From the NCBI GenBank assembly GCA_026991535.1, contig JALXBH010000050.1, forward strand, positions 14,380 to 78,379: DNA of 64,000 nt, given 5' to 3'. Source of the DNA: Calditrichia bacterium (lineage in GTDB: Bacteria; Calditrichota; Calditrichia; Calditrichales; J004). Positions within the stretch are counted from its first letter, which is position 1; each line of letters starts with the position of its first letter. Below the pieces are notes generated by a model, which ran no database searches, was not told the DNA's origin, and was given only the letters and a program-made list of their open reading frames with translations. Positions 38,721 to 59,908 of this stretch are shown in pieces. The position numbers and the translations under genes were made by a program.

Positions 38721-38773
38721 CTTTTTTCCCCGTGGTAAATCCCATTTTATCGTAGCGGCTTTCCGCGCGCGGC

Positions 38774-42230: not shown

Positions 42231-42512
42231 GGTTTTGTCTCCGTCTAAGTAGCTAAATATACCGTGATTTACCATAAAAATCTAACTTTTAAGACTCTGC
42301 GGAAACCTGTCCTCTTTGGGGGATGGTCTGTTATGTGTCCGGAAAATCGACCGGATATGAAAGGACAAAAAAAACAGTCCGCGTATGGGTTCAAAGTTTG
42401 TTTTCCGGCCTAACTATGCTTTTGACTGTCTGCCCCCTGATTTTGCCAAAATATTAGAAAAATATAAGTCAATTGTCAGAAATATTTACCGAAACTATTT
42501 GATTCACATTTT

Positions 42513-42538
42513 TTAGTAACTATATTTAGTGTTACTAA
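42513..42538. promoter_or_regulatory. Perfect inverted repeat TTAGTAAC-N10-GTTACTAA (candidate operator)
   Basis: Read directly from the sequence, 37 nt upstream of the GH13 ATG (42575). Lies in the 344-nt divergent intergenic region. The spacer contains TATATTT. Confidence 0.3.
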
Positions 42539-42574: not shown

Positions 42575-44398
42575 ATGTATCGACTCTTTTTTTTGCTGAC
42601 CGTGCTTCTGCTTTCCTGTAAGCAGCATCCCGTGGTTTCCGGCCCGGAGTGGGTGCCGTCGTCCGTGTTTTATCAAATTTTCCCGGAGCGTTTTGCCAAC
42701 GGGGACAGCACCAACGATCCTACACGGGCCAGCCTGGCCGGCAGCTATCCCCATGACACGACCAACGCCTGGCATATCAGTCCCTGGACGTCCGACTGGT
42801 ATAAGCTGCAACCCTGGGAAAAGGCCAATGGCAAGGGCTTTGCCTATAATGCTCAACGAAGGCGATACGGAGGCGATCTGCAGGGGATAATCAACCGTCT
42901 GGACTACCTGCAAAAGCTGGGTATCAACGCCATCTATCTCAACCCCGTTTTCTATTCTCCCTCCCTGCATAAATACGATGCCGCCGCATATCATCATATC
43001 GATCCCTATTTTGGTCCCGATCCCCGGGCCGATTTAAAGCTGTTTGAAAAGGAAAACCCCGCCGATCCCGCAACCTGGCAATGGAGCAGCGCCGACAAGC
43101 TTTTTCTAAAGCTGTTGGAGCAGGCGCACGGCAGGGGCATGCGTGTTATCATCGACGGCGTTTTTAACCACACCGGTATAAATTTTTGGGCCTTCCGTGA
43201 TGTGCGGGAAAAGGGCGCGGACTCGCCTTTTGCTTCGTGGTATACCATAAAACGCTTTGACGATCCTTCTACCTCCCGCGATGAGTTTGATTACCAGGGG
43301 TGGATGAATGTGCGCGAACTGCCCGAACTGAAGGAAGATGAAAACGGTTTAATTGCGCCGGTGGCGGAACACATATTTGCCGTCGTCCGACGTTGGATGG
43401 ACCCCAACGGAGATGGTGATCCCTCCGACGGCATAGACGGTTGGCGCCTGGATGTGGCCGAAATGGTGCAACATCCCTTTTGGAAAAAGTTCAGGGAAGA
43501 GGTTAAGTCCTTAAACCCCCAGGCCTATATTACCTGCGAAATTTTTTGGGAGGACTGGGCCAATAACAAATTAATGGATCCAGGACCCTGGCTGCAAGGC
43601 GATCAGTTTGACGGAGTGATGAACTATCGCTGGGCGGCGGCCATGACCCGCTTTTTTATTGATGACAGCACCCGCTACAACGCCGATGAGTTTGCCCGGG
43701 AGATTATGCGCCTCGACCGTAGTTATGCCCCGGAAACACGTTACCAACTGCTTAACCTGATGGACAGTCACGATACGGACCGGCTGGCGTCCAATATTGT
43801 AAACCCCGATCTTTTTTATGATAAAATGGTGGGGCTGAACGACAATCCGCGTTACAACGTGCGGCGTCCCAATGATGGGGAGTGGCGGAAGCTGCGTCTT
43901 ATTGCCATGGTGCAAATGACCTTTCCCGGCCCTCCGATGATCTACTACGGCACCGAGGCCGGTATGTGGGGCGCCGACGACCCCGATGAGCGCAAGCCCA
44001 TGGTCTGGCCGGAAATGACCTACGAAACCGAAACCGCCAATATCAGCCTTACCCCGCGCCCCGCGGACCCCGTCCTTTTTGACAGCACCCTTTATAACTT
44101 TTACTCCCGACTCATCCATTTACGATTGTCGCAGCCCGCGTTGACCCGGGGCAGCATGAAGTTTGTCTTTTCCGATCGGGAAAAGGATATCCTGGCCTAC
44201 AAGCGTATTCTGGGGATGGATGAAATTTTGGTATTGATCAACAACTCTTCCTCGGAGCAGACGGTCTTTCTCCCCGAGTATGATTCCAGGTGGCAGAACC
44301 TTATCCTGGGTAAGCCTTTTGTTTATATCAACCGGGAAGGCGTACGCATGGCGGGCAAAAGCGCCTTTATCCTTAAAAAGGTAAGTGAAGATGCGTAG
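42575..44398 (+). CDS. GH13 alpha-amylase-family lipoprotein (neopullulanase/cyclomaltodextrinase-like)
   Basis: Lipobox LLLSCK. GH13 regions are DGVFNHTG, GWRLDVAEMV, ITCEIFW, LMDSHD. Confidence 0.85.
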   Translation: MYRLFFLLTVLLLSCKQHPVVSGPEWVPSSVFYQIFPERFANGDSTNDPTRASLAGSYPHDTTNAWHISPWTSDWYKLQPWEKANGKGFAYNAQRRRYGGDLQGIINRLDYLQKLGINAIYLNPVFYSPSLHKYDAAAYHHIDPYFGPDPRADLKLFEKENPADPATWQWSSADKLFLKLLEQAHGRGMRVIIDGVFNHTGINFWAFRDVREKGADSPFASWYTIKRFDDPSTSRDEFDYQGWMNVRELPELKEDENGLIAPVAEHIFAVVRRWMDPNGDGDPSDGIDGWRLDVAEMVQHPFWKKFREEVKSLNPQAYITCEIFWEDWANNKLMDPGPWLQGDQFDGVMNYRWAAAMTRFFIDDSTRYNADEFAREIMRLDRSYAPETRYQLLNLMDSHDTDRLASNIVNPDLFYDKMVGLNDNPRYNVRRPNDGEWRKLRLIAMVQMTFPGPPMIYYGTEAGMWGADDPDERKPMVWPEMTYETETANISLTPRPADPVLFDSTLYNFYSRLIHLRLSQPALTRGSMKFVFSDREKDILAYKRILGMDEILVLINNSSSEQTVFLPEYDSRWQNLILGKPFVYINREGVRMAGKSAFILKKVSEDA

Positions 44399-46043
44399 GC
44401 TTTTTTTTATGGCAATGGCTGTGCTCTTGCTGGCCTCCTGCCGTCAGCAACCGGTACAAACGGTGGCGACTGTGGGAGACTACACGGTCGACTTTGACAG
44501 CTACCTGAAGCGCTACCGTGAGTATCTGTTTACATCGGCCATGAAGGATAACCTGGTAACCCGCAGGCAGGTGGCGCAAAACATGGCGCATGAACTGTTG
44601 CTTAAGTATTATGATGACAATAGCGCCCTGGAAAACGATCCCGAATATAAAAAGGAGCTGGAGTGGGCCAAAAATCAAATGATCCTCGGTTATCTGAAGG
44701 ATCAGGAAGTATACGCCCGCATAACCGCGGATGAGCGGGAGGTGCGCCGGGCCTTTGCCCGCAGCAAGGAAAAGATAGCCGCCCGGCACCTGTACGCCCC
44801 TACCCGTGAAGAAGCAGAGCGTTTATACACGGCCTTAAAGCAGGGCGCCTCCTTTGAGGAGCTGGCCCGGAAAACCTTTACCGATTCCATCCTGAAAAGC
44901 AATGGCGGTTACCTGGGATATTTTAGCTGGGGGGACATGGACCCCGCCTTTGAGGACAGCGCCTACAGTCTGCGACCTGGGGAAATATCCCGTCCCGTAA
45001 AAACGGCGCAGGGTTACAGCATTATAAAAGTGGAGGACCGCAAGCCCGCGCCCCTGTTGACGGAAACACAATATCTAAACGCCCGGCGCGGCATAGAGCG
45101 CATTTTGCGTATCAATAAAAAACGTCCGGCGGAGCAGGCTTTTTTAAAGCAGCGTTTTGATGAAGAAAAATTAAATTTTTACGATGAAGGTCTCAGTCGT
45201 CTGGTAGGGAGGCTCTCCGCCCGCGACGAAGAACGGCGGGAGGCGTATGATACGGTGGCCGCCTATGGCGAACGGGTATTTACCCTGGCTGATATCAGGA
45301 AGGAGCTGGAGCGTGTCCCGCAAAGCGTACAGGCCGCCATTGTCGATATCCCTTCGCTAAAGGCGGCGATTAAGGGTTTGCTTATACAGAAGGCCTTGCT
45401 GGATGAAGCCCGGGAAAAAGGATATGACGAAGCGCCCCTTGTGCGGGAGAAGGTGGAAACGGCACGCAATAATCTTTTTCTGAAATTTAAGTTTAATCAG
45501 GTTTTACGGGCCTTTACCGTACCCGATAGCGCCTTGAAGGCCTACTATCTGGATCATAAGGACGAATTTAAATCGCCCCGCAAGCTGGAAGTCTCCGAAA
45601 TTCTGGTGGACAGCGAGGACAAGGCCCTGGAGTTAAAAGCCCGTTTGATGGCCGGGGAAGATTTTGGAAAGCTGGCCCGGGAGCATTCCCTGCGCCGCTG
45701 GTCCGCGGAGCGGGGCGGGCGGATGGGGCTTTCGGATTGGGGCCGCTTCGGTCTGTTGCGCGGAAAACTATGGAAGGCGCCCCTGAACAAAGTTGTGGGG
45801 CCCTGGCAGGCGCGAGGTCTGTTTGGTCTGTTTAAGGTAACCCGCCGCATAAAGCCCGGGCCGCAAAGTTACAAAGCCGTAAAAGAGGAACTTATTCAAA
45901 GATATAAAAAAGAGTATGAATGGAAGATAATGTTTATCTATTTGAATAATCTTTATAAAAAAACAAAGATCAGCTATAACAATGACCTGATAAAATCCTT
46001 TGTTTTGGATGAAACAATCGATGGGATCAGTAAGGAGCACTAA
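44385..46043 (+). CDS. SurA/PrsA-like peptidyl-prolyl isomerase lipoprotein (two parvulin-like domains)
   Basis: Lipobox LLASC. Parvulin-like segments (NGGYLGYFSWGDMDPAFEDSAY...GYSIIKV and GGRMGLSDWGRF...LFGLFKV). Confidence 0.7.
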   Translation: MKMRRLFFMAMAVLLLASCRQQPVQTVATVGDYTVDFDSYLKRYREYLFTSAMKDNLVTRRQVAQNMAHELLLKYYDDNSALENDPEYKKELEWAKNQMILGYLKDQEVYARITADEREVRRAFARSKEKIAARHLYAPTREEAERLYTALKQGASFEELARKTFTDSILKSNGGYLGYFSWGDMDPAFEDSAYSLRPGEISRPVKTAQGYSIIKVEDRKPAPLLTETQYLNARRGIERILRINKKRPAEQAFLKQRFDEEKLNFYDEGLSRLVGRLSARDEERREAYDTVAAYGERVFTLADIRKELERVPQSVQAAIVDIPSLKAAIKGLLIQKALLDEAREKGYDEAPLVREKVETARNNLFLKFKFNQVLRAFTVPDSALKAYYLDHKDEFKSPRKLEVSEILVDSEDKALELKARLMAGEDFGKLAREHSLRRWSAERGGRMGLSDWGRFGLLRGKLWKAPLNKVVGPWQARGLFGLFKVTRRIKPGPQSYKAVKEELIQRYKKEYEWKIMFIYLNNLYKKTKISYNNDLIKSFVLDETIDGISKEH

Positions 46044-48758
46044 ATGAGACAAAAGTTCTTTACACTGTTTTTATTGGCTTGCGTTCAGGGGCTGATGGCC
46101 GGAACGACGGGTAAGATAGCCGGTCATGTTCAGGACAAGAACAGTGGCGAACCCTTGATCGGGGTCAATATATACCTTGAAAATACCGTGTTGGGCGCCA
46201 CCACCGATGTTAATGGTGATTATGTTATCCTCAACATTCCGCCGGGTAAGTACACGGTTATTGCCCAGTACATCGGCTATCATGAGGTTAAAATGGAAGG
46301 GGTGCGCATCAGCATCGACCGTACCACAACATTGGACTTTACGCTGTCCGAGGAGACGATGGAACTGGAGTCGGCCATTGTGGTACAGGCGCAACGCGAT
46401 CTGATCCAGAAAGACCTTACTTCCAGCAAGGCTGTGGTTTCCTCCGAGCAGATCGAATCCCTGCCGGTGGTGGAGATGAGTGACATATTACAGCTACAGC
46501 CGGGCGTAAGCCGCGGGGCCAACGGTGAGTTTCACATTCGCGGCGGTCGCAGTTCCGAGATTGCCTATCAGGTAAACGGGGTTTCCATCAGCGATGCCTA
46601 TGACGGCAGCCAGGCCGTGGATATAGACAACAACAGTATTCAGGAGATCGAGGTTATTTCCGGTACCTTCCCCGCCGAATACGGTAACGCCATGTCCGGC
46701 GTGGTGAACGCCGTAACCAAGGAGGGCTCCCAAACCTTTGAAGGTAATGTTCAGGTTTTCAGCGGCGACTATCTTAGCAACTTTACCGATTATTTTTTCA
46801 ATATAGATAATTTCAATCCCGCTCAGGACTACAGTCTGCGCGGCTCCCTCAGCGGACCCATTTTTCGTAACCTGACCTTTTTTATGACCACCCGTTATAA
46901 TTATACCGACGGCTATCTGTATGGCACGCGCAAGTTTTCGGTTAACGGGGATACCTTGGTGGCCCAACGTCCGGACGGCACTTTTGAAAACGGGGCTATT
47001 GTGCCCATGAACTGGAGTAAAAACTGGACGGGGCAGGGCAAGCTTACCTTTACACCGACGGGGACGCTCAAGCTTACTTCCGAGTTCCTGTTTTCCCGTC
47101 GTAATTTTCAGGACTATGACCATAATCTGAAATATGCACCCGATGGAAATTTAAATAAGTTTCTGGATAGCTATAACGGCTGGTTTTCCATGACGCATAC
47201 CCTTTCGGCCACCACTTTTTATGAGGTAAAAACGGCTTATCTTGTTAAGCAATTTAAGCAGTATCTTTACGAAAGCCCCACGGATCCCCGTTACCTGGAC
47301 CCCTCCGGACGCGTGGTTGGCGAAAATGTTGTTCCCTGGCGCGCGGACGGCAATGCTTTTGCCACCGGCGGTACCAACAACAGCCGTTTTTCACGGGAGA
47401 CCCGTACCTTTCAGGTACGCGCCGATATCGTTTCACAGTTAAATAAAAACCATCTGGTAAAGATGGGTTTGGAGACGCGTATCCATCGCCTGAGCCTGGA
47501 TGACTACAGCGTGCAGGACGGCGCGATCAATGATAAAGACCTTTTTCTGCCCACCGTCCCGGATAAAAACAGCGCTCAGCGCTCCAACTATGTACGTAAG
47601 CCCGTCGAATTTGCCGGCTATATTCAGGATAAAATCGAATATCAGGATCTGACCATCAATGTGGGTGTGCGTCTCGATTATTTTGATCCCAATGCCAAGG
47701 TGCCGGCCATCCAAAGCGATCCCGATATCAATGACCCGATCAATGCCGCCTATGATTCCGTTTCCTATGCCGAAAGAGAAAGTGTTTATCTGAGGGACGC
47801 CACGGCCAAGTGGCAGATCAGTCCCCGTCTGGGTATTTCCTATCCCATCAACAGCGAGGGTACCATTCACTTTTCCTATGGCCACTTTTTGCAGGTACCT
47901 TCCTTTGAATACCTCTATAACCGCAGCGATTACCGTCTGCCCGACAACCCCAATAACGAGGGGGTTTTCGGCAATGCCGACCTGGACGCCCAGCGTACCA
48001 TTATGTATGAGCTGGGCCTGCAACAGGGCTTTGCCAGGGATTACCGGTTGGATGTAACCGGCTTTTACCGCGATGTGCGCGATTGGATCAGTACCAGCGC
48101 CCCCATCCGCACCCTGAACAACGGCACCTATATTAAATATATCAACAAGGATTATTCGAATATCAAAGGCCTAACCCTGAGCTTTAACAAGCGGTATAGT
48201 AACAACTATTCCTTTGATATGAGCTATACCTTTCAAATTGCCGAAGGCAGCAACTCGTCCCCCGAGGATGAGTTTAACGCCATCAACTCCGGCGCGGCGC
48301 CGACCATCTTTATTTTACCGCTGGACTGGGATCAGCGTCATTTGCTAAATCTCTCCTTTTACTATGGCATGGAAAACTGGGGCAGCAGTATTATTGCCCG
48401 TTTCGGCTCCGGCCTGCCTTACACGCCCAGCATCACCCAGGTCACTTCCGATCGCGGCATCAGCGCCGGCCTGCAACGCAACAGCCGGGAAAGGCCGGGT
48501 CAGTTTACTATTGATCTGCGCCTGCATTATGCCTTTGAACTGGCCTCGGCCCGCATGACTGCCTTTTTACGCGTGTTTAACCTGCTGGACAACCGTGTGG
48601 TTGTTAATGTTTTTGGCGACACGGGTAAGGCGGATTTTACTACTAACTATATCAATGTAACAACCAACGGACCAAATACTGTTCAGGAATATACCCGCTT
48701 TCCATGGCACTATGCCCCGCCAAGAAGGGTGCAATTCGGTCTGGAAATGGCTCTGTAA
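46044..48758 (+). CDS. TonB-dependent receptor-like outer-membrane protein with an N-terminal carboxypeptidase-regulatory-like domain (SusC-like architecture)
   Basis: Signal peptide. CarboxypepD_reg-like segment (GKIAGHVQDKNSGEPLIGVNIY...GDYVILNIPPGKYTV). Plug motifs (HIRGGRSSEIAYQVNGVSI). Long beta-barrel region. Confidence 0.8.
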   Translation: MRQKFFTLFLLACVQGLMAGTTGKIAGHVQDKNSGEPLIGVNIYLENTVLGATTDVNGDYVILNIPPGKYTVIAQYIGYHEVKMEGVRISIDRTTTLDFTLSEETMELESAIVVQAQRDLIQKDLTSSKAVVSSEQIESLPVVEMSDILQLQPGVSRGANGEFHIRGGRSSEIAYQVNGVSISDAYDGSQAVDIDNNSIQEIEVISGTFPAEYGNAMSGVVNAVTKEGSQTFEGNVQVFSGDYLSNFTDYFFNIDNFNPAQDYSLRGSLSGPIFRNLTFFMTTRYNYTDGYLYGTRKFSVNGDTLVAQRPDGTFENGAIVPMNWSKNWTGQGKLTFTPTGTLKLTSEFLFSRRNFQDYDHNLKYAPDGNLNKFLDSYNGWFSMTHTLSATTFYEVKTAYLVKQFKQYLYESPTDPRYLDPSGRVVGENVVPWRADGNAFATGGTNNSRFSRETRTFQVRADIVSQLNKNHLVKMGLETRIHRLSLDDYSVQDGAINDKDLFLPTVPDKNSAQRSNYVRKPVEFAGYIQDKIEYQDLTINVGVRLDYFDPNAKVPAIQSDPDINDPINAAYDSVSYAERESVYLRDATAKWQISPRLGISYPINSEGTIHFSYGHFLQVPSFEYLYNRSDYRLPDNPNNEGVFGNADLDAQRTIMYELGLQQGFARDYRLDVTGFYRDVRDWISTSAPIRTLNNGTYIKYINKDYSNIKGLTLSFNKRYSNNYSFDMSYTFQIAEGSNSSPEDEFNAINSGAAPTIFILPLDWDQRHLLNLSFYYGMENWGSSIIARFGSGLPYTPSITQVTSDRGISAGLQRNSRERPGQFTIDLRLHYAFELASARMTAFLRVFNLLDNRVVVNVFGDTGKADFTTNYINVTTNGPNTVQEYTRFPWHYAPPRRVQFGLEMAL

Positions 48759-48782
48759 CCGCTTTAGCAGGAGATACTTTTG

Positions 48783-51700
48783 ATGAACGGAATGAAAATA
48801 AATTTTTACCGGCTTGTGGTTTTGGTGCTTGGCATGACCATGACCCTTTCCGCGCAATATACACCCGGTAAGGAGCGCGGCAACCCCGACTACAGGCGCA
48901 AGGCACAGCTTGAGGGCAATAATGTGCGTACCACGATTTTTAACTGGGGACAAACAGGACGCCAGGGCGCCGTGCCCATTTCGGTGGAAACACCCTATGA
49001 GTGGCCCAAAAATACCGGCAAGGTCTATCTGGCTCTGACCGGGCTTTTTGTCGGCGGTGAGGTGATTGATGAGGATGGCAATAAGCTGCGCATCGTCGAT
49101 GTAATGAATTACCGCGAAAATCCCACCACCCGCGATACCTGGAACATGGAGCCGGTGCCGGGCTATTTTAACACGGCCCGTCCTTCCAGCGAGCAGACCA
49201 TCGCCAATTCGGTCGATCCGGAATCGTGGCCGCCCTTTTGGCCGGATAAAGAGGGTGATGCAAATGACCCCGGTTGGGCCGGAAGCTGGAACGGCTATTT
49301 CGGCAAAAACATATTTAACGCCGATCAGGAAATTTACTACCGCGCCTCGGACGACCTTTACGACCGTTATAACTATTTTCCCGATACCACCGACCTGACC
49401 CGCAAGGGCATGGGCATCATTCTGGATGTACGCAACATGGCCTGGTCGCAAATTCTGGTCAGCGATGTGGTTTATCTGCTTCACACCTTTAAAAACGACG
49501 GCACCAAGGATATTGAAAAATTTGCCGTAACCATTTGGGATGCCGATTTCGTGGGTGGCGACGGCGATTCTCAGGATGATATTTCAGAGTTTGATCTGCT
49601 GGAAGATATCATCTGGAGCCGGGACAGCGACCATAAAGCGCCTACCTTCGGTAATGATCCCGTGGGTATCGTCGGTGTGTCCCTCTTGGAGACGCCGGGT
49701 ATTGCCATCGACCGTGTGGATAACGATGGTGACGGCGAGTTGAACAGTCCCATCGTCAGCGAGGAGATGCTGGTGGGCGAAGACCCCACCAACCTTTTGG
49801 ATGATAATGGCAACGGTCTGATCGATGAGAATGAAACCCATGTGCCCTTTGGCGATCAAAAAGGGGTGGGTTATGCCGACCGCATAGACAACGACGGTAA
49901 CGCCGAGGCCAACAGTCCGCTGGTCACCCAGGCCATGGCCGATCTGGTGGCTTCCGATACCTGGAAACGATGGCCGCCCAATCCCGAAGCCGATGACCTG
50001 CAAAACGGCGCGGTTCATCTGCTGATGGTGGAGTCCGACGATGTGGGCGCGGCCTTTGCTGATTTTATTGACAATGATGATAACGGCGAGGCCGGCAGTC
50101 CCGTCATCACACAGAAGATGATCGATCAGGCCTCCGGTGACAGCCCTTATTTTCGCTATAAGGTTCCGGGTACCGATATTATTCTATACGATGTAAAGGC
50201 CGAAGACCTGGGCAAGGCCTATGCCGACGGCGTGGATAACGACGGCAACGGTGCCGTTGACGAAGGCATCGACGAAGGTATTGACGAGATGATTGAGGAA
50301 AGGCGCAACGATTTCGTCGATAATGACGGCGACTGGAATCCGTTGCTCGACGATGTGGGGCTGGACGGCGTGCCCGATACGGGTGATGAAGGTGAAAATG
50401 ACGGCGTGCCCACCTCGGGTGCCGGCACCAACTTTCCCGGAGAGCCCAACATTGACGTAACCGATGTTTCCGAAACCGATCAGATCGGCATTACCAATGC
50501 CCAGCGGCTCAGCGCCGGAGCGCTGGATTTAAGCAGCGACGCCGTGCTCTGGTTCAATTATATGATTCCCGGAAAATTCTACGATCCGCAAAGCGTCGTT
50601 TCCGGTGAATTCGACGTGCTGGTCAGCGCCGCCTACTTCCCCTTAAAGGCCGGTCAGTCCGAGCCGATCTCCATGGCCGTTATACTGGCCAACGGACCGG
50701 TTCCCGATCCCAACGGCGAAATACGCAAGCAGGCCGTACTGAAAAAACGGGTGCGCGCCCAGGAAACGTATAATAACGACTATCAGTTTGCCAATGCCCC
50801 TGCCACGCCCACCCTTACGGCCGTGCCCGGCGATAACAAGGTTACCCTTTATTGGGATGATGCCGCCGAAAAGAGTTTTGATCAATATATCGCCAATATC
50901 GGCGGTAACGGCAACGACTTTGAAGGCTATCGCATCTACCGCAGTACCGACCCCGCCCTGCAGGATGTTACCAATATTACCAACGGCTATGGTGAGTTGA
51001 TCTTCAGATCCCCGCTGGTTCAGTTCGATCTGATAGACAATTATTATGGTTTTGACTCGGTGGGTATCGACGGTGTGCATTTTAACCTGGGCAGTAATAC
51101 CGGTATTAAACATACTTTTGTGGATGAAAGTGCCAAAAACGGTTTTACCTACTATTATGTGCTTACTTCCTACGACTTCGGCTATCCCGAGGGCAATATT
51201 CTGCCGACCGAATCACCCTTCCGCATCAATGTGCGCGGCGACGGCACCATACAGCTTAGCAAAAACGTGGCCCGGGTTTCGCCCGCGCCGCCCGCGGCCG
51301 GCTATGTGGAAGCCACCCTGGGTAATGTCCGGCATGCGGCGGGTACCTCATCCGGTAAGATTGGGTATGATATCATAGACCCCAACAAGGTGCGCGACGG
51401 TCATGTCTATCATATAACTTTTCGTGACACGTTACGACCGGGGATCGGCGCCGAGTCCGATACGCTGACCACCCTTTCCTACACCCTGGTGGATTCCACC
51501 TCGGGCGACACGCTGGTGGCCGACAACCGCAATCTGGCGGCCGGCACCGAACAGCCGCTGACCGACGGTTTCCGCCTTATTTTTCAAAACGAGGAACAGG
51601 TGGAGCTGAACACGGCTCTTTCGGGCTGGAGCAGTCCCGATATCCCCGATTTTGAATTTGCCAAGCTCACCCAGCCCAACGGGAATAACGGCCGCCAGGC

Positions 51701-52463: not shown

Positions 52464-52481
52464 CCCGCGGGAGAATATGCA

Positions 52482-53495
52482 ATGAAAACAAAAACACTTA
52501 TTTTGATTATACTGATGTTTGCCGCGACACTATGGGCGGATGTTTCCAAAACGGGTACCACGGCCGGCAAATTTTTAAATATCGGCATGGGGCCGCGTAC
52601 GGTGGCCATGGGCGGGGCCTACTCCTTCTCCACGGATGATCCGGGGGCGGTATACTGGAATCCGGCCGGTATCGGGCGCATCAGCAGACCCATGGGGCTT
52701 TTCAGCCAAACCAGCTGGATTGCCGATGTGAATCTGAATTTTATCACTATGGCCATGCCCACGGGGGACGCCGGTGTTTTCAGCGCCTCGGTAACGGCGG
52801 TTACCATGCCCGATATGCTGGAGACAACCGAGTTTCAGCCGGAAGGCACCGGCAATACCTTTGCCGCGGGCATGTATGCCATCGGCCTGACCTATGCCCG
52901 GCCCTTGACGGAAAATTTTGTAATTGGCGCTACTTTGAAATATGTTAGGGAAAATATTGCCGCCTCGTCGGCGCAGGGAATTGCCCTGGATATCGGTACG
53001 GTATTTACCACCCCTTTCAGCGGTATCCGTTTCTCCACGTCGATTACCAATTTTGGCACCAAGATGCGTATCAACGGCGATGATCTGCTGTTTCAAAACA
53101 CGCCCAATCCCGAGCAATCGGGCACGGTGAACCGGTTGAATTCCAATTACGAAACCGACGCCTTTGACCTGCCCCTGCGTTTGCAACTGGGACTCTCCCG
53201 CGATTTTGAAATCAGCGAGGGCCAAAACCTTGTTTTGGCCATGGATGCCGGCTTGCCCAGCGATAACACGCAATACATGAATCTCGGGGCGGAGTGGTCG
53301 TTTTTGAATAAAATGGTTTTTCTGCGCGGCGGTTTTAAAACGCTGTTTATGCGTGACCGCGAGGAGGGACTGACCCTGGGCGCCGCCGTGCGTTACAACA
53401 GCGTGGGCTATATGTCCTTTGCCATAGACTATGCTTTTCAAAGCTTTAAGTTTTTGGGCGATGTTCACACATTTGGCATAAAAGTCGGATTTTAA
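52482..53495 (+). CDS. PorV/PorQ-family outer-membrane beta-barrel protein
   Basis: Signal peptide. N-terminal GTTAGKFLNIGMGPRTVAMGGAYSFSTDDPGAVYWNPAGIG is typical of the PorV/PorQ family. C-terminus ends in F. Confidence 0.65.
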   Translation: MKTKTLILIILMFAATLWADVSKTGTTAGKFLNIGMGPRTVAMGGAYSFSTDDPGAVYWNPAGIGRISRPMGLFSQTSWIADVNLNFITMAMPTGDAGVFSASVTAVTMPDMLETTEFQPEGTGNTFAAGMYAIGLTYARPLTENFVIGATLKYVRENIAASSAQGIALDIGTVFTTPFSGIRFSTSITNFGTKMRINGDDLLFQNTPNPEQSGTVNRLNSNYETDAFDLPLRLQLGLSRDFEISEGQNLVLAMDAGLPSDNTQYMNLGAEWSFLNKMVFLRGGFKTLFMRDREEGLTLGAAVRYNSVGYMSFAIDYAFQSFKFLGDVHTFGIKVGF

Positions 53496-53570
53496 AAAAG
53501 GAGGTGCTTAATCTTAGCAAACGTATATAAAAACTTTACATGTTCCACTAACCAAACAGGAGGTTTCTCA

Positions 53571-55778
53571 ATGAGAAAACTTTCGATACTTTTCACCCTT
53601 GGCCTGTTTCTGCTCGGTTTTACCGGCCTGCAGGCTGCTGAAGTGAATGTCACTTTTCAGGTAGACATGAACGTTCAGATGCTTAAGGGCAATTTTGACC
53701 CCGGCACTCAGGTGGTGCGCCTGGCCGGTTCCATGCAGGACTGGAGCCCTTCACTGGCGCCCGACATGGAAGACCCGGACGGCGATGGTATTTTTGAAGT
53801 CACTTATACCATGTCCAGCGGGGATCACCAGTATAAATATGTAATCGGTACGGATTGGGGCAACAATGAAGGCGACCCGAACCGTTCCATCACCATTGGG
53901 GATAAGGATACCACCATCGCTCCCGTATTTTATAACGATGAAGCGGCGTTGACCTTTCCCGCATCTTCGGACAGCACGGTTATCCTGCATCTGGCTGTCA
54001 ACATGACCCGTCAGATTCAGATTGCCAATTTTGATCCCGAGACGGATGTTGTTCGTGCTGCCGGTTCTTTTCAGGACTGGAGTCCCGCAAACGCGCCCGA
54101 TATGTCCGATCCCGACGGTAACGCTACTTATGTGGTGACCTATGAAGTAAAACCGAACCAGACCTATGCCTATAAGTTTGTCATCGGTACGGATTGGGGC
54201 AACAACGAGTCTGACCCCAACCGTGAGTTTACCGTGGGTGCCAATGATACGGCTGCCGCACCTGTATATTTCGACGATGATCCGTATGTAGAGCCTGTGG
54301 CGGGTGACTCCATAATGGTAACCCTGCAGGTGGATATGAGCGTGAAGATACTGGAAGGCTTCTTTGATCCTTCTTCCGATGTGGTACGCGCTGCCGGTAG
54401 TTATCAGGGTTGGAGCCCGTCTGCCGCGCCCAATATGGAAGACGGCGACGGTGACAGCGTTTATGTAGGCACTTACAAGATGCCGGCCAACAGCAGGCAG
54501 GAATACAAATTCATCATCGGTACGGACTGGGGCAACAACGAGGATAATAACCGCGCCATTGAACTCGGTGCCAATGATACCACCATCGCTCCGGTATTTT
54601 ATAATGACGATGATGTGGTTACGGACATCAAAGACGGCAGCATCAACTTTAACGTGCGCATGGATGTTATGGCCGAGGTGCTGATTTTTGATCCGGCCAA
54701 GGACTCCCTGCAGGTGCGCGGCGGTTTTAACGGCTGGGGCGATAGCGATCCCACGCGTTCCAAAATGTCCAGCAAAACCACGGACCCGTTGGAGTGGTTC
54801 CTGAATGTGCCTTTTGTACAGCAGGGCGTGGGCGATAACCAGTCCTATAAGTACTATGTTGTTAAAGCGGATGAAAGTACAACCTGGGTCGATGGCTGGG
54901 AACGTCCCGCTTCTCAGGGCGGCGGTAACCGCGATGTTGAATTTGCCGGTGTGGAAAATCAGGACGCCAGCGAAGAGACCACCTATTATGACGACGTTCA
55001 TCCCGATTGGGTAATCGAGAGCGGCAAGGATGTTTCCGTGGTCTTCTCCGTGGACATGGCCCCGGCCATGGACGGTGATCTGCAGGCCGTACCCTTTGAT
55101 CCCGCCACCGATACCCTGTACTGGATCGGTGAAATGCCTTCCTTTGTCAATACGCAGGGATGGGAAGATGTTGATGAAATGCGCGTTCTCAAACTTACCG
55201 ACGACGACGGCGATAATATTTTCTCAGCCACTCTGTCGCTGGTAACGCCGACCTTCAACACCTTTGAGTATCGTTACGCCTGGCGCAGTCAGGATGGCAG
55301 TTGGACCTTCGAGCCGGCCGGTTTTGGCGATTTTGCCTATCGTATCCGCTACATCGGCCAGGATGGCGCCCGCAGCTTCCCCACGCTGCCCTGGGATATG
55401 CCGACCGATACCTGGACCAACCAGGAAGATAAGTCCGACCAGCAGGAATTCGATCCGTTTAAGTCGTTGACCTCCATCGGTCATACCCCGGATGTTCCGA
55501 CCGTTTATCAATTGGATCAGAACTATCCGAACCCCTTCAACCCCTCAACCACCATCAGGTTTACCGTACCGGTTGCCGGTAAGGTAACACTGACGGTTTA
55601 CAATGTTGCGGGCCAGAAGATTGCTACGCTGATTAACGGCAATGTGACCGCCGGTTCCCATACACGTGTATGGAACGGCAAGGACAACGCCGGAAATCAG
55701 GTTGCTTCCGGTGTCTACTTTTACAAGTTGACCGCTGAGAAATTCTCGGCAACCGAGAAAATGATCCTGATGAAGTAA
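53571..55778 (+). CDS. Non-catalytic surface protein with five CBM20-like starch-binding modules and a T9SS C-terminal domain
   Basis: AGGAGG Shine-Dalgarno and a signal peptide. The modules contain G(S)xQDWSP...YKFVIGTDWGNNESDPNREFTV, which resembles the CBM20 core (fungal glucoamylase SBD ...EYKFI...WESDPNREYTV). NYPNPFNP...GVYFYKL...LMK tail. Confidence 0.7.
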   Translation: MRKLSILFTLGLFLLGFTGLQAAEVNVTFQVDMNVQMLKGNFDPGTQVVRLAGSMQDWSPSLAPDMEDPDGDGIFEVTYTMSSGDHQYKYVIGTDWGNNEGDPNRSITIGDKDTTIAPVFYNDEAALTFPASSDSTVILHLAVNMTRQIQIANFDPETDVVRAAGSFQDWSPANAPDMSDPDGNATYVVTYEVKPNQTYAYKFVIGTDWGNNESDPNREFTVGANDTAAAPVYFDDDPYVEPVAGDSIMVTLQVDMSVKILEGFFDPSSDVVRAAGSYQGWSPSAAPNMEDGDGDSVYVGTYKMPANSRQEYKFIIGTDWGNNEDNNRAIELGANDTTIAPVFYNDDDVVTDIKDGSINFNVRMDVMAEVLIFDPAKDSLQVRGGFNGWGDSDPTRSKMSSKTTDPLEWFLNVPFVQQGVGDNQSYKYYVVKADESTTWVDGWERPASQGGGNRDVEFAGVENQDASEETTYYDDVHPDWVIESGKDVSVVFSVDMAPAMDGDLQAVPFDPATDTLYWIGEMPSFVNTQGWEDVDEMRVLKLTDDDGDNIFSATLSLVTPTFNTFEYRYAWRSQDGSWTFEPAGFGDFAYRIRYIGQDGARSFPTLPWDMPTDTWTNQEDKSDQQEFDPFKSLTSIGHTPDVPTVYQLDQNYPNPFNPSTTIRFTVPVAGKVTLTVYNVAGQKIATLINGNVTAGSHTRVWNGKDNAGNQVASGVYFYKLTAEKFSATEKMILMK
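53640..54611 (+). repeat. Three tandem, highly similar ~111-112-codon modules inside the CBM gene (two more divergent copies follow, to about 55370)
   Basis: The DNA string atcggtacgga(t/c)tggggcaacaa recurs at 53844, 54183 and 54516, a period of 333-339 nt. The protein modules align over about 100 aa. Confidence 0.75.
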
Positions 55779-55791
55779 GCTAAACATTCAG

Positions 55792-55820
55792 GCCGGCCGC
55801 TCCGGCGGCCGGCTTTTTTT
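55792..55820 (+). terminator. Rho-independent terminator ending the GH13-to-CBM operon
   Basis: Stem GCCGGCCGC/GCGGCCGGC with a 4-nt loop, followed by TTTTTTT. Confidence 0.8.
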
Positions 55821-55908
55821 ATTACCAATGGTATTTTTCCCTTTGCTTTGGCGAAAGCAAAAAGAAAAATATCCTGCCTTACAATCATTTACTTATAACG
55901 GGGAAAGC

Positions 55909-57723
55909 ATGAGTATACTCGATTATTCTATTGTTGTCGTCTATCTGATAGGCATGGTTGGCATCGGTCTCTATTTTCAGCGCAAGGCCTCCAAGGGCAT
56001 CAGTTCCTACTTTTTGGGCGAGCGCGATATGCCGTGGTGGGCGTTGGGCGCATCGGGCATGTCCTCAAACCTGGATGTCAGCGGTACCATGATCAATACG
56101 GCTTTTATTTTTGCCCTGGGCGCCTCGGGTTTTTTTATAGAAATCCGCGGCGGCGTTACGCTTATCATGGCTTTTTTGATGATCTTTCAGGGTAAATGGA
56201 ACCGCCGGGCCCTGGTGATGACCCTGGCCGAATGGATGCATTTTCGCTTTGGCAAAGGCCGTCAGGGCGATGTGGCCCGTTTGATTGCCGCTTTCTCCAT
56301 TATAATAGTCACTATCGCCATGATCACCTATTTTGCCATCGGCTCCGGAAAGTTTGTGGGTGAGTTTTTGGGTATACCCGACTACCTGGGGTTGCCATCA
56401 CAGTTTTGGGCGGCCACGCTTATGATCGGCCTGGCCATGATATACACCGTGGCCAGCGGTTTATACGGCGTGGTCTGGACGGATGTTTTTCAGGGTATCC
56501 TTATTTTTGGAACCATTATTTTTATTTGCAGTCTGGCCTTTTTCAGTTTTAACCTGCCGGAAACCTTTCAGGTATCCGTACCCCTGCGCGATGGCGGTTT
56601 TATGGCGCTAAACACTACCCGCGAGGCCTGGACCAGTGTCTGGCCCAGTTGGGAACTGAACCTGCCCGCGGAATCGGCCTATTCTATTTATAATTTATTT
56701 GGCATCGCCATTCTCTTTTATCTGGTCAAGGTAACCATCGAGGGCGCCGGGGGGACGTCGCAATATATGATCCAGCGCTTTTTTGCCTCTCGCAGCGACC
56801 GCGAGTCGGGTTTACTCTCCCTGTTCTGGACGGTGTTGCTTGCTTTTCGCTGGCCCTTTATCGCTGCCATTGCCATTCTGGGTATCGTTTTTGGTACGCA
56901 AAGTGGGGTTATTGAGGACCCGGAAGCGGTTCTACCCATCGTTATCAACCAGATGGTGCCTATCGGTATTAAGGGCATACTGGTGGCTGGTCTGATGGCC
57001 GCGGCCATGTCCACCTTCGACTCCACGGTAAATGCCGGAGCCGCTTATTGGGTTAAGGATATTTACCAAACCTATATCAATCCCAAGGCCAGTGAAAAAA
57101 CGCTGATGGCCCACGGACGCTGGTCGTCAATCATCCTGGTGGTACTGGGTCTCGGTTTTATGTTGTTGATTAATAATATAAATGAAATATGGGGCTGGAT
57201 AACCTCCAGCCTGGGCGCGGGATTACTGGTGCCGACCATGGCCCGCTGGTATTGGTGGCGCATGAACGGTTACGGTTTTGCCGCCGGTACCGTGGCCGGA
57301 ATGGTGGCCGCCGTTTTACAGCGGCTGTTTTTGCCCGATATTCCGGAATACTTTTCATTTATGATCGCTACTTCCGCTTCGCTTGTCGGAATGATCATCG
57401 GTACCTATCTGGCGCCGGCCACGGATGAAAAGGTGTTGCTGGAATTTTATAAACGCACCCGCCCCTTTGGTTTTTGGGGGCCGATCCGTAAGAAAATCAA
57501 GGGCGAAGTGATGGAAAAAATCAACAGGGAAAACCGGCGGGATATTATTGCCACCTTTTTTGCCGTGCCCTGGCAGGTGGTCTTGTTCCTGACGGGAATG
57601 GCGGTTATCATGAAGCGCTGGGATGAGTTTGCCTGGCTGGGTGTGATCCTGCTGGCCCTCTCCACGGGCTTGTATTTCTTCTGGTTCCGGCATCTTTCCA
57701 CGGAAGTTAAAGTGACGGATTAG
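55909..57723 (+). CDS. Sodium:solute symporter family (SSF) transporter
   Basis: Start reset to MSILDYSIVVVYLIGMVGIGLYF, a typical SSF N-terminus. About 13-14 TM segments. Confidence 0.85.
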   Translation: MSILDYSIVVVYLIGMVGIGLYFQRKASKGISSYFLGERDMPWWALGASGMSSNLDVSGTMINTAFIFALGASGFFIEIRGGVTLIMAFLMIFQGKWNRRALVMTLAEWMHFRFGKGRQGDVARLIAAFSIIIVTIAMITYFAIGSGKFVGEFLGIPDYLGLPSQFWAATLMIGLAMIYTVASGLYGVVWTDVFQGILIFGTIIFICSLAFFSFNLPETFQVSVPLRDGGFMALNTTREAWTSVWPSWELNLPAESAYSIYNLFGIAILFYLVKVTIEGAGGTSQYMIQRFFASRSDRESGLLSLFWTVLLAFRWPFIAAIAILGIVFGTQSGVIEDPEAVLPIVINQMVPIGIKGILVAGLMAAAMSTFDSTVNAGAAYWVKDIYQTYINPKASEKTLMAHGRWSSIILVVLGLGFMLLINNINEIWGWITSSLGAGLLVPTMARWYWWRMNGYGFAAGTVAGMVAAVLQRLFLPDIPEYFSFMIATSASLVGMIIGTYLAPATDEKVLLEFYKRTRPFGFWGPIRKKIKGEVMEKINRENRRDIIATFFAVPWQVVLFLTGMAVIMKRWDEFAWLGVILLALSTGLYFFWFRHLSTEVKVTD

Positions 57724-57894
57724 ATTGTTGATAACCGTGGAGTTTTCCACATAATAAACTGCCGGGGGTATGGCGAAATTTCACCATACCTGCGGTGTCT
57801 CTTGTAGGGAAAAGCGCTGTAAGTATTTTAATATCAGTAGTTTATCGTGTTTATTTCAATGGGTAAACGGCAAATAGGTGTACGATCGTATTTC

Positions 57895-59067
57895 ATGAAA
57901 AAAGTTATCCACAATTTATCAACAAGCAAAAATGGTATGTTTTACATACTGCTTTTTATGCTAACAAACATTCTTTTTTTAGCCTGCGGACAAGAAAAAA
58001 ATTGGGATGATGTGCTGGATTTGATGGTTGATTTGCCCGAAGAGGGCAGGCAAATCGCGGCGGAACGCTGGCTGGAGAGGCAGAATGCTTTTCCCCTGGT
58101 AGAGGACAGTACGGTTGTTTTTATTTACAGGAACCGCCGCGATATACCTGTTTTTTTGACGGGTGATTTTAACGGCTGGTCTGACAAGGCGGAACCCTTT
58201 TTGAAAATTATCGGCACGGATATCTATTACAGAAGACATTCGTTTAGACCGGACGCCCGAGTGGAATATAAAATTATTGCCGGCAAAAAATGGCTGTTGG
58301 ATTCATTGAACCACAATGTTGCCAGCGGAGGGTTTGGCAGCAATTCTGTTTTGTTTATGCCGGAATACCGTTTTCCCCGGGAAATATTACGTTTGCGAAA
58401 CAAGGCCTACACGAAACTGGACACCGTAAGCTTTAAGGCGGGTGGAGGGGAGTACAGGGGCTATGTATACCGGCATCCCGAAGCCGCGGAACAAGACCCG
58501 TTTATAGTATTCAATGACGGCGGCGATTATATACGTTTTGGTCAGGCAACGGTAATAATGGATAACCTTATCCGCGAGGGACGCCTGCCCGCTCTGAATG
58601 CTCTTTTTGTCGATCCTCTGGATCGCATGCGTGAGTTGCGCTTTGATGATGATTATTTAAAGCGTCTGTTACGGGAGATTGTGCCGGCCTGTTTAAAGCA
58701 ATATGCTTTAAGGCCTTCTCATATATATATGGGAGGCGCCTCGCTGGGAGGCTTGACCTCATTGTATGCTCTAAGGGATCATGGAACCATGCTGGAGGGG
58801 CTCTTTTCCCAGTCCGGCTCCTTTTGGGTTGACAGTTTGCGTATTGTTAAGGCGCTGGACAAAGCGGCGATCAAAGGAAAAAAAATCTATGTGTCCTATG
58901 GACTTTATGAGTCTCAGGACGAAAATCAAAAAAAGACGGTAAATTTTTTAAAAGAACAACAGGCCCGGCTAAAGGTTCAGGCCGTGGCCGACGGGCATAA
59001 CTGGGGAAACTGGAGCGGCACCCTGGGCAGCGCCCTGCGCTTTCTGTTATCCTCCGGGGAGAAGTAA
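57895..59067 (+). CDS. Esterase-family alpha/beta hydrolase lipoprotein with an N-terminal CBM48/E-set-like module
   Basis: Start reset to MKKVIHN...LFLACGQ (lipobox). N-terminal TGDFNGWSD...VEYKII module. Nucleophile elbow GGASLGG. Confidence 0.7.
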   Translation: MKKVIHNLSTSKNGMFYILLFMLTNILFLACGQEKNWDDVLDLMVDLPEEGRQIAAERWLERQNAFPLVEDSTVVFIYRNRRDIPVFLTGDFNGWSDKAEPFLKIIGTDIYYRRHSFRPDARVEYKIIAGKKWLLDSLNHNVASGGFGSNSVLFMPEYRFPREILRLRNKAYTKLDTVSFKAGGGEYRGYVYRHPEAAEQDPFIVFNDGGDYIRFGQATVIMDNLIREGRLPALNALFVDPLDRMRELRFDDDYLKRLLREIVPACLKQYALRPSHIYMGGASLGGLTSLYALRDHGTMLEGLFSQSGSFWVDSLRIVKALDKAAIKGKKIYVSYGLYESQDENQKKTVNFLKEQQARLKVQAVADGHNWGNWSGTLGSALRFLLSSGEK

Positions 59068-59068
59068 T

Positions 59069-59908
59069 ATGGTATATGATGAAATAGCACAACGCATGAA
59101 AAAACTGGGATTTACTCTGTATGAGTCCAAGGCCTATGTTTCGCTGTTGCAGCACAACCCGGCCACGCGTTACGAATTGAGCAAGCAATCCGGCGTGCCC
59201 CGTTCCGCTATTTACGACGTTATCCGCAAGCTGGAAAACATGGGCGCTGTCAACGGCACCTATACCGAGCCGCAAAAATATATGCCCCTGCCGCCGGATC
59301 AGCTGTTTGATTTGCTGGAACGGCAGTTTAAGCAACGCGTTTCGGAAGTGCGACAGGCCATGAAGCATTTTGAAATAGCCCTGGAACCGGGCCATCTGTG
59401 GAATATTGTCGGTTACGAAAACATGATACATAAAGCCCGAGAGATGATCGAGCGCGCCGAAAAGTCCATCTATATTTCCGTGTGGCAACAGGAAGCGGAT
59501 ATGTTGAAAAAGGAACTGGGCGCGGCTATAAAGCGCGGAGTAAAGATCATCGCTTTTTCCTTTACCACCATAGACCTGCCCACGGAATGCATCTATACCT
59601 ACGGCATTAATCAGGATGACATGGAAGCCTTTTGGGATCATAAGATCATACTGGTTGTGGATCAAAACGAACTGTTGATGGGCGAGGCCGACCGTAAGTT
59701 GCCCAAAAAAACAGCCTGGACCCACAATAAAGCGATCGTTGACATTGCCACCAACCACATCATTCTGGATATCACCCTGTTTGGTATGCGTAATAATATT
59801 GATGTTTCGGATACGGTGGTTTCCATGCAAAAAGCCACCTCGGATCATCTGCAGGAGTTGCTGGCCACCAGCACAAAGGAGACCATTCAGGTTAAGAACG
59901 GAAAATAA
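59069..59908 (+). CDS. TrmB-family sugar-responsive transcriptional regulator
   Basis: N-terminal winged helix LGFTLYESKAYVSLLQHNPATRYELSKQSGVPRSAIYDVIRKLENMG plus a C-terminal effector domain. Starts 2 nt after the esterase stop. Confidence 0.8.
   Translation: MVYDEIAQRMKKLGFTLYESKAYVSLLQHNPATRYELSKQSGVPRSAIYDVIRKLENMGAVNGTYTEPQKYMPLPPDQLFDLLERQFKQRVSEVRQAMKHFEIALEPGHLWNIVGYENMIHKAREMIERAEKSIYISVWQQEADMLKKELGAAIKRGVKIIAFSFTTIDLPTECIYTYGINQDDMEAFWDHKIILVVDQNELLMGEADRKLPKKTAWTHNKAIVDIATNHIILDITLFGMRNNIDVSDTVVSMQKATSDHLQELLATSTKETIQVKNGK

Follow-up and report, generated by a model that had tools for sequence, protein, structure and literature searches.

A TonB-dependent transporter, a giant secreted protein and a PorV-like barrel at a SusD-less alpha-glucan locus of a Calditrichia bacterium

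The discovery of polysaccharide utilisation loci (PULs) and the assignment of glycan niches rest almost wholly on susC/susD gene pairs. How, then, is a locus to be read that carries the components for alpha-glucan uptake and no SusD? This question is raised by a 64,000-nucleotide stretch of contig JALXBH010000050.1 (positions 14,380 to 78,379 of the forward strand; assembly GCA_026991535.1) from a Calditrichia bacterium, here called the window, in whose numbering all coordinates are given. Positions 42575 to 59908 encode nine products, among them a TonB-dependent transporter (TBDT), a 1227-residue secreted protein of an unannotated family, which we refer to as the giant, and an outer-membrane barrel of the PorV/PorQ family. 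We describe these three genes as the core of a TBDT-based glycan locus with a new accessory pair that is predicted to depend on a type IX secretion system (T9SS). We found the trio described nowhere in the full-text literature that could be searched; subscription journals lie outside this coverage, so an earlier description is possible.

The transporter, the giant and the barrel

The original prediction for this locus, made from the DNA letters alone, held that SusD is missing. This is borne out by Pfam, by Foldseek, by the nearly all-beta model of the giant and by its missing lipobox. None of the nine products matches a SusD family, and for the giant this holds in Pfam at E<=5. The giant (48780..52463, + strand) is a Sec-exported, nearly all-beta multidomain protein, whose signal peptide is of the signal-peptidase-I type and has no lipobox. 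Its AlphaFold2 (AF2) model, which reaches a predicted local distance difference test (pLDDT) score of 77.6 with a 44-sequence alignment, contains few short helices and no TPR-like all-alpha domain, and SusD/RagB is absent from the 50 Foldseek matches of this model. The suggested check for a SusD fold hidden inside the 1227-residue protein thus found none by AF2 and Foldseek.

The transporter (46044..48758, + strand) combines an N-terminal carboxypeptidase-regulatory-like extension (PF13715/PF13620, residues 25-113) with a plug (Pfam Plug, residues 122-220) and a barrel. In its AF2 model (pLDDT 75.9), a beta-sandwich at residues 23-101 is followed by a flexible linker with the TonB-box-like motif SAIVVQA, the plug and a barrel of about 22 strands. 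The receptor had been called SusC-like, and this order of extension, TonB box, plug and barrel agrees with that description. Its membership of the SusC/RagA family, however, does not hold. The SusC/RagA model TIGR04056 gives 75.6 bits against a cut-off of 368, in an alignment limited to residues 24-230. The top 50 Foldseek matches in the PDB are all classical TBDTs (PqqU, PfeA, PirA, FepA, Cir, FusA, YddB, BtuB and others), with no SusC/RagA chain among them. Because of this partial alignment and these structural neighbours, we consider the transporter SusC-like in its N-terminal architecture only. The neighbours include BtuB of B. thetaiotaomicron with its surface protein (PDB 8bmx), and homologues of the transporter are named 'TonB-dependent receptor' in their source annotations. 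By the PULDB-type test for a tandem susC/susD pair, the locus has carbohydrate-active enzymes (CAZymes), no susD and no true susC.

What stands in the place of SusD belongs to no named family. Searched whole and in four pieces, the giant matches no Pfam family at E<=5. NCBIfam returns nothing apart from its C-terminal domain (CTD), and neither the single sequence nor the 44-sequence profile matches any PDB chain by sequence. Structurally, the top match among the 50 Foldseek matches is PorZ, and most of the others are adhesion and receptor ectodomains of the Fn3/Ig type. For one domain, Foldseek points (probability 0.99) to similarity with the N-terminal beta-supersandwich found in GH94 phosphorylases, which is a non-catalytic domain. 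Within the family, the N-domain (about residues 1-300) and the CTD are conserved. They flank a stretch of variable Asp-rich repeats of the DxDxDG type (Ca-binding-like, about residues 320-540), which are often deleted in paralogues, and a middle region with an Fn3-like module and further beta-sandwiches, where residues 880-1080 are the least conserved. Many Asp, Glu and aromatic residues are invariant, and 108 residues are conserved alike among paralogues from alpha-glucan, mannan-type and beta-glucan-type loci. Among 150 family representatives, none is a natural fusion that joins the giant to a TBDT or a PorV-like domain; the longer members have more repeats.

The original prediction overlooked that the 1227-residue protein ends in a divergent T9SS-type CTD. 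This domain comprises the last ~110 residues (52131..52460, + strand) and is of a family-specific kind, here termed g-type, with the motif VVPNPY..WE..NPY.SGRGPR..HF.HLP..CTIRIFT..GELV (alignment A3). HHalign relates its profile to the canonical type-A CTDs of neighbouring carbohydrate-binding module (CBM) proteins at 92% probability. Among 33 family members, 31 match the PorU CTD in NCBIfam, 30 the PorZ CTD and 15 TIGR04183; the giant of the window itself reaches 16 bits against TIGR04183, under the cut-off of 23. The CTDs of PorZ and PorU are the best-scoring relatives. The giant fails the full-length PorU and PorZ models, which align to the last ~55-110 residues only (14-26 bits against cut-offs of 420 and 260), and it has no C25 peptidase domain and, by sequence, no PorZ-type propellers. 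PorU and PorZ keep their CTDs uncleaved and stay docked to PorV and PorQ, respectively (PMC10202324, PMC10947112), and it has been proposed that cognate PorV-like barrels shield these CTDs from cleavage (PMC10202324).

The gene that follows the giant encodes a FadL-like outer-membrane barrel of the PorV/PorQ family (52482..53495, + strand), which matches the family model NF033709 over residues 26-337 with 178.1 bits against a cut-off of 90. Its sole sequence match in the PDB is F. johnsoniae PorV (6h3i_F, E 3.6e-5). The equivalog models all fail (scores against cut-offs: PorQ, NF033711, 94/220; PorV, NF033710, 53/250; PorV2, 68/325; BamG, 18.5/250), so we regard the barrel as a distinct paralogue that is neither core PorV nor PorQ. 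In P. gingivalis, porU and porV are presumably adjacent too (PG0026/PG0027).

Conservation and reuse of the trio

Conservation of the three genes as a unit was addressed in two independent samples of 80 loci each, one with the 80 best genome loci and one with 80 metagenome loci retrieved with distant relatives. In about 130 loci, which belong to Calditrichota, Ignavibacteria, Rhodothermales, Balneolales, Marinimicrobia, KSB1 and Kryptonia, the trio forms a unit that hardly varies. With both samples pooled, giants with a g-type CTD have a TBDT directly upstream in 120 of 123 informative loci and a PorV-like barrel next to them in 126 of 132, as expected if the triad is conserved elsewhere. The exceptions are mostly contig ends, frameshifts or artefacts of ORF calling, the second unit of a tandem (L058), or an alternative gene order, TBDT-barrel-giant-PPIase, found in L061, L082 and L143 (PPIase, peptidyl-prolyl isomerase). 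The gap between the TBDT and giant genes measures a few to tens of bases, or the genes overlap, in at least six phylum-level lineages. The identities of TBDT, giant and barrel to the copies in the window co-vary (r = 0.88-0.92).

The longer order PPIase-TBDT-giant-PorV-like-CBM/T9SS is kept at 45-97% identity in Calditrichota, Ignavibacteria/Melioribacteraceae, Rhodothermales, Marinimicrobia/Fidelibacterota and metagenome-assembled genomes (MAGs) labelled KSB1, and at 39-41% identity in Balneolaceae. The lineage labels of such MAGs include Neomarinimicrobiota, and among those that keep the order are Melioribacter roseus and a Melioribacter sp. in culture. In a Kryptonium MAG, the TBDT-giant-PorV-like core is retained. 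The family of the giant is large. A word-indexed search returned more than 1264 homologues, all unnamed, and the best 120 of these are 57-97% identical, 1166-1256 residues long and all 'hypothetical'. Clustered at 50% identity, the family comprises 4150 clusters at E<=1e-3 and 532 at E<=1e-30, and at least 522 loci lie in species-representative genomes.

Not all relatives carry the same tail. Of the top 150 family representatives, 120 have the g-type CTD; in 16, its place is taken by a canonical CTD of type A, and NCBI names these proteins 'T9SS type A sorting domain-containing protein'. The four informative relatives of the type-A kind (L160, L165-L167) have no PorV-like barrel, TBDT or CAZymes nearby. 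Tabulated against CTD type, a barrel is present or absent in 126 and 6 loci with the g-type and in 0 and 5 with type A (Fisher p ~1e-6), a test that ignores phylogeny and in which one of the five type-A rows (L128) is a fragment. From this co-occurrence we conclude that the g-type CTD, the private barrel and the TBDT are one co-inherited set. Such a set is what a cognate-anchor model predicts, short of proof. Three of the type-A relatives (L165-L167; P0406, P0392, P0405) lie on long contigs and encode proteins of ~950 residues with an N-domain of ~50% identity and without Asp-rich repeats, as stand-alone genes in unrelated neighbourhoods (an Nqr operon, SCO1/SenC and others).

Tandem units of the form TBDT-giant-barrel-TBDT-giant occur in L058 and L069. 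No barrel accompanies the second giant of L058, which may point to a single barrel shared by both giants or to an incomplete second unit.

The triad had been placed in an alpha-glucan setting. This is correct for the locus described here, but the module is generic and not specific to alpha-glucans: paralogous trios at 30-40% identity adjoin other CAZymes, including those of mannan and beta-glucan loci. In L061, the trio stands with CE2, CBM9 and GH26 proteins that have T9SS tails (mannan-type), and with a sigma-54 two-component system. In L070 and L079 (beta-glucan-type), LacI and GH94 accompany the trio, together with a glucanase (PF10091, GH144-type) that bears CBM30 and a T9SS tail. A beta-1,2-glucan cluster of Ignavibacterium album resembles these two loci; the paper that describes it names only 'a TonB-dependent transporter' (PMC8861115). 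In L082, the neighbours are a CBM9 protein, an SSF (sodium:solute symporter family) transporter, a sulfatase and an epimerase, and a 1.0-Mb Melioribacteraceae contig carries an alpha-glucan and a mannan-type module together. The regulators vary around a constant core: TrmB in the window, L019 and L045, LacI in L002, a Y_Y_Y sensor kinase in L084 and the sigma-54 two-component system in L061.

Beside the alpha-glucan module of one Melioribacteraceae genome (L002/L003, 18887-23669) lies another SusD-less array, in which a 742-residue TBDT with the same N-terminal extension is accompanied by a 326-residue protein, a GH53 protein with a T9SS tail and GH5. The 326-residue protein has no Pfam or NCBIfam match and may be a second kind of TBDT partner.

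The operon, its control and its surroundings

All nine open reading frames (ORFs) named in the original prediction were recovered at their coordinates on the + strand, and the proteins of the window are 97% identical to those of a Calditrichales MAG (L001). The first six genes (42575-55778) are co-directional and overlap or lie at most 75 nt apart. They are followed by an intrinsic terminator (55790..55815, + strand) with an 11-bp stem that holds 9 G-C pairs and runs into the T-rich stretch TTTTTATT, the best site in the scan. ORF positions and terminator together bear out the proposal of a single, terminator-closed operon of six genes (42575-55820).

The operon begins with a lipoprotein of glycoside hydrolase family 13 (GH13; 42575..44398, + strand; PF00128, 187.9 bits), a predicted alpha-glucan hydrolase that resembles neopullulanase, cyclomaltodextrinase or maltodextrin glucosidase and has partial NCBIfam matches to the maltodextrin glucosidase and cyclomaltodextrinase models. 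It is followed by a PrsA/SurA-like lipoprotein with two parvulin PPIase domains (44385..46043, + strand; PF00639/PF13616/PF13145 in two stretches). The lipoboxes read LLSC|KQHP and LLASC|RQQP, respectively. Because neither has an acidic residue after the Cys, both lipoproteins probably face the periplasm, following the surface-lipoprotein signal rule for Bacteroidota quoted in PMC12578637. Unlike these two, the TBDT, giant, barrel and CBM protein have signals of the signal-peptidase-I type. The PPIase gene lies directly upstream of the TBDT gene in most orthologous alpha-glucan loci and 3' of the giant gene in some paralogous loci.

The sixth gene encodes a putative surface starch-binding protein with X25/CBM20/CBM48-like modules and a type-A T9SS CTD (53571..55778, + strand; PF00686 66.5 bits, PF22058 69.6 bits). 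Five CBM20-like modules had been counted; three are clear tandem copies (residues 23-125, 141-237 and 248-347), but the other two are divergent and match weakly. Its CTD scores above the cut-offs of both TIGR04183 (46 bits against 23) and PF18962 (30.5 against 27), which supports the predicted anchoring of the glycan binder through the T9SS. The protein is thus likely to be exported by this system and tethered at the cell surface.

Three further genes on the same strand follow the terminator. The SSF symporter (55828..57723, + strand; PF00474, 113 bits) is a candidate inner-membrane sugar importer, with orthologues of 79-84% identity after the module in L005, L013 and L039 and beside it in L044, all Calditrichia-type loci. 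Next comes an enterochelin-esterase-like esterase (57847..59067, + strand; PF00756). The CBM48 that had been assigned to it finds no Pfam match at E<=5, and its first ~150-200 residues match no family. The esterase gene is conserved 3' of the SSF gene in the Calditrichia-type loci L005 and L013, and is present in the Neomarinimicrobiota locus L056, where there is no SSF gene. The last of the nine genes encodes the expected TrmB-family transcription regulator, a putative sugar sensor (59069..59908, + strand), with both PF01978 (77.3 bits) and PF11495 (32.7 bits) above cut-off; in L019 and L045, too, the module is linked to a TrmB homologue. This gene content supports a PUL-like build for alpha-glucans with a surface binder, a TBDT, a periplasmic GH13, an inner-membrane symporter and a regulator. 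In a related alpha-glucan locus, the extracellular amylase is encoded separately, as a GH13 that has a T9SS tail.

Upstream of the operon lies a single good promoter match, a pair of sigma-70-like hexamers, TTGATT-16-TATATT (42499..42526, + strand), which agrees with the consensus at 9 of 12 positions and is predicted from its position. Its -10-like hexamer is overlapped by the inverted repeat TTAGTAAC-N10-GTTACTAA (42513..42538), a candidate TrmB operator whose arms proved to be perfect over 8 bp. The repeat occurs once in the window, where 0.01-0.05 occurrences are expected. Its half-sites, in the form AGTAA-N12-TTACT, lie 40-60 nt upstream of the GH13 gene in a Calditrichaceae locus of 59% identity (L013). 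In L045 they occur in the stretch that separates the GH13 gene from trmB, which are divergent there, and they also precede the CBM gene; L033 has them with one mismatch. A match at 6371 of L033 falls within a coding region and was discarded as chance. The stricter pattern is confined to MAGs of the same species. Over 1.33 Mb of loci, the motif was observed 5 times against 2.4 +/- 1.7 expected, a count that is not significant alone. The evidence for an operator is, at the level of sequence, its consistent position at the promoter and not the motif count: because two further lineages have the half-sites at this promoter position as well, the proposal gains support, and TrmB would bind the repeat at 42513-42538.

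Upstream of the operon, on the opposite strand, lie a second GH13 protein with CBM48 (AMPK1_CBM) and the lipobox LSLSC (35191..37578, - strand; Pfam) and a glucose-1-phosphate adenylyltransferase, GlgC (40593..41870, - strand; PF00483 and PF25247). With these two genes the alpha-glucan theme reaches beyond the operon coordinates. The GH13/CBM48 protein (35191-37578) may act before import. Between GlgC and a DUF2797 gene sits a 605-residue ORF (38774-40591, - strand) without Pfam (E<=5) or NCBIfam match, which adjoins GlgC also in the 97%-identity MAG (L001) and could be an unrecognised protein of glycogen metabolism. T9SS cargo is also encoded by two other genes. One product is an M6 peptidase (immune inhibitor A-like) that carries a CTD and a lectin-like domain (9398-11602, - strand), the other a 547-residue protein whose CTD is its sole recognisable domain (23015-24658, - strand); together they indicate that the organism uses the T9SS widely. 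The TrmB gene is immediately followed by genes for a histidine kinase with PAS/HAMP and for a sigma-54-dependent response regulator (60301-63200, + strand); a comparable sigma-54 pair flanks the mannan-type module in L061. The sole RNA gene found in the window by Rfam and tRNA scans is a tRNA-Thr (CGT) at 38648-38721 (+ strand), and the same scans found no regulatory RNA at the locus.

Proposed mechanism, its alternatives and known systems

How could such a locus work? On balance, we lean towards a model in which the giant is exported by the T9SS, held at the surface by its cognate PorV-like barrel and acts as the glycan-capture partner of the TBDT. In this model, the giant would retain its PorU/PorZ-like CTD and dock with it in the adjacent barrel, as PorU does with PorV and PorZ with PorQ. 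The docked giant may then sit beside or over the TBDT as a capture or lid partner, comparable to SusD (with SusE/F) on SusC or BtuG on BtuB. The CBM20/X25 protein, with its type-A CTD processed after T9SS export, would tether starch at the surface. Malto-oligosaccharides would be imported by the TBDT in a TonB-driven manner, with the TonB box between N-terminal extension and plug, trimmed by the periplasm-facing GH13 and moved across the inner membrane by the SSF symporter. The parvulin lipoprotein may aid the folding of the proline-rich giant, the assembly of the TBDT, or both. The TrmB regulator would sit on the palindrome over the -10 region until released by sugar. Beside other CAZymes, diverged copies of the three outer-membrane proteins form the same core, reused for other glycans.

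Several points weigh against this model. Physical contact among giant, TBDT and barrel is something we infer. The giant has no recognisable CBM (Pfam, E<=5), and no ligand-binding site was identified in it. Its identity of 45-60% across phyla is far above that of usual SusD-like binders and could instead reflect an enzymatic or structural constraint. Retention of the CTD is read from sequence resemblance, at weak scores of 26 and 20 bits. The association of CTD type with the barrel is confounded, as the type-A relatives, of which four are informative, also lack a TBDT and are shorter or more distant. Of the T9SS, Pfam finds only CTD-bearing cargo in the window and none of the core genes. The rule by which the two lipoproteins face the periplasm comes from Bacteroidota, and Calditrichota may differ. 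Finally, there is no extracellular amylase among the proteins identified in the window.

This last point, together with the unusual conservation of the giant, its many invariant Asp, Glu and aromatic residues and its GH94-like domain, would fit a giant that is itself the missing extracellular enzyme, a new family of surface glycanases or debranching enzymes in the role of SusG. We consider this improbable. The same 108 residues are kept across alpha-glucan, mannan and beta-glucan paralogues, which would hardly be expected of a single active site that serves different linkages; in the sequence searches the giant resembles no glycoside hydrolase family and no catalytic domain, and its GH94 match is to a non-catalytic domain; and paralogous loci already have a T9SS-secreted GH26 or GH144-like enzyme. 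Because related alpha-glucan loci encode a GH13 with a T9SS tail apart from the giant, the role of amylase does not have to fall to the giant. A cryptic SusC/SusD pair, with a SusD that is no longer recognisable or is fused into the giant, would account for the position of the giant gene, directly downstream of a TBDT that has a SusC-type extension. This reading has next to no probability left and is contradicted by the fold and matches of the giant, by its signal peptide and by the transporter, which fails the SusC/RagA model and has classical TBDTs as neighbours. In addition, Melioribacter roseus carries a genuine SusCDE operon besides the module (PMC3534657; L010, L040). The same operon rules out that the module is a stop-gap for a lineage devoid of SusD, and because of it we view the module as an alternative to SusCD.

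The presence of a chaperone and a barrel inside a catabolic operon had suggested that the PorV paralogue serves in biogenesis or cargo handling. In its full form, this reading takes PPIase, barrel and giant as a private kit of assembly or secretion accessories, either a dome akin to BamG-K or a shuttle for the CBM cargo. In line with this, the operon encodes a PPIase and a FadL-family barrel, the barrel matches BamG weakly (E 8.6e-4), and T9SS type-A cargo genes flank most triads. In the machinery for beta-barrel assembly (BAM) of Bacteroidota, the FadL-like BamG anchors surface proteins including two PPIases (PMC12578637). We nevertheless hold such a kit to be unlikely, if less so than a giant enzyme. 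The match to BamG reaches 18.5 where the cut-off is 250, many paralogous triads have no PPIase, and several loci per genome, each with its own diverged set of three proteins, would be costly for assembly factors. The barrel tracks the giant and its g-type CTD, not the CBM cargo: it stays adjacent where there is no CBM/T9SS gene and moves with the giant where the order is TBDT-PorV-giant (L061, L082, L143). A role as cognate anchor fits better than cargo handling, because the giant has a PorU/PorZ-like CTD and because CTD type, barrel and TBDT travel together. Lastly, giant and barrel might be a pair of T9SS surface adhesins that has no part in transport and whose genes just happen to lie beside those of TBDTs. 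The Foldseek matches to adhesion and receptor ectodomains and the stand-alone relatives with ordinary CTDs outside glycan loci speak for such a pair. It is nonetheless very improbable, given that the TBDT is adjacent in 120 of 123 loci across the sampled lineages, that the proteins co-diverge and that their contexts are consistently CAZyme loci.

Returning to the capture model, we tentatively go one step further, although with less confidence than in the model itself: TBDT, giant and barrel, often with the parvulin lipoprotein, may constitute a distinct and ancient outer-membrane machine for glycan import in the non-Bacteroidia lineages of the FCB (Fibrobacteres-Chlorobi-Bacteroidetes) group, namely Calditrichota, Ignavibacteriota, Rhodothermota/Balneolota, Marinimicrobia/Fidelibacterota, KSB1 and Kryptonia. 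If true, the trio would be a T9SS-built functional counterpart of SusCD and the missing PUL marker for these phyla. CAZyme clusters of Ignavibacteria/Ignavibacteriales and Kapabacteria reportedly contain few or no susCD genes (PMC10576277), which leaves the uptake systems of these organisms effectively invisible. A three-gene signature would allow TBDT glycan loci to be found and typed in several phyla that are abundant in the environment, among them marine Marinimicrobia, sediment Calditrichota and hot-spring or wastewater Ignavibacteria. With it, a large 'dark' family of ~4,000 clusters without a Pfam or NCBIfam model would be placed in a functional context for the first time, and the role of PorV-family barrels and retained CTDs would reach from the secretion machine to nutrient uptake. 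The trio would then represent a natural experiment in building a TBDT lid without surface lipoproteins. As cultured carriers exist (Melioribacter; probably Rhodothermus and Caldithrix), the model is directly testable.

Among known systems, the SusCDEFG system of Bacteroides and other SusCD PULs share with the locus surface binders, a TBDT whose carboxypeptidase-regulatory-like N-terminal extension precedes the TonB box, a GH13 in the periplasm, a transporter in the inner membrane and a regulator that responds to sugar, as well as a partner gene directly downstream of the TBDT and, in each genome, several paralogous loci for different glycans. In contrast to these, the locus has no SusD TPR lipoprotein, and its TBDT stands outside SusC/RagA. 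Its surface parts are T9SS cargo instead of surface lipoproteins, a PorV-family barrel and often a parvulin PPIase are added as obligatory parts, and regulators such as TrmB and LacI take the place of SusR or hybrid two-component systems (HTCS). A looser relative is found in the carbohydrate utilisation loci containing TBDTs (CUT loci; PMC1790865) of Xanthomonas and other Proteobacteria, which likewise combine a SusD-less TBDT with CAZymes, an inner-membrane transporter and a regulator, and are not known to have a large surface partner, a PorV-like barrel or a T9SS. All four of these component classes are co-located in the window. The locus thus falls outside the SusCD PUL tests and within the looser definition of a CUT-type TBDT locus, and by its predicted function it works like a PUL.

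For the accessory pair, the closest parallels are PorU-PorV and PorZ-PorQ (PMC10202324, PMC10947112, PMC5562754). Here, too, a big secreted protein with a kindred CTD, retained in the known pairs, is matched with a barrel of the PorV/PorQ family; however, these pairs are single-copy parts of the secretion machine, whereas the pair of giant and barrel is locus-specific, multicopy and tied to a TBDT. Barrel genes beside large cargo genes, in many paralogous pairs, are also known from type-B CTD proteins and PorP/SprF barrels (SprB-SprF, PG1035-PorP), where the barrel anchors the cargo non-covalently (PMC9143113). These differ in that the barrel described here is of the PorV/PorQ kind and the CTD is related to type A, and in that the known role of the type-B pairs is adhesion or gliding and not import. 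The pairing of a TBDT outside SusC with a beta-rich surface partner recalls BtuB-BtuG (PDB 8bmx), in which BtuG captures the ligand. BtuG, in contrast, is a ~40 kDa lipoprotein beta-propeller without a barrel anchor, and its cargo is a vitamin (B12).

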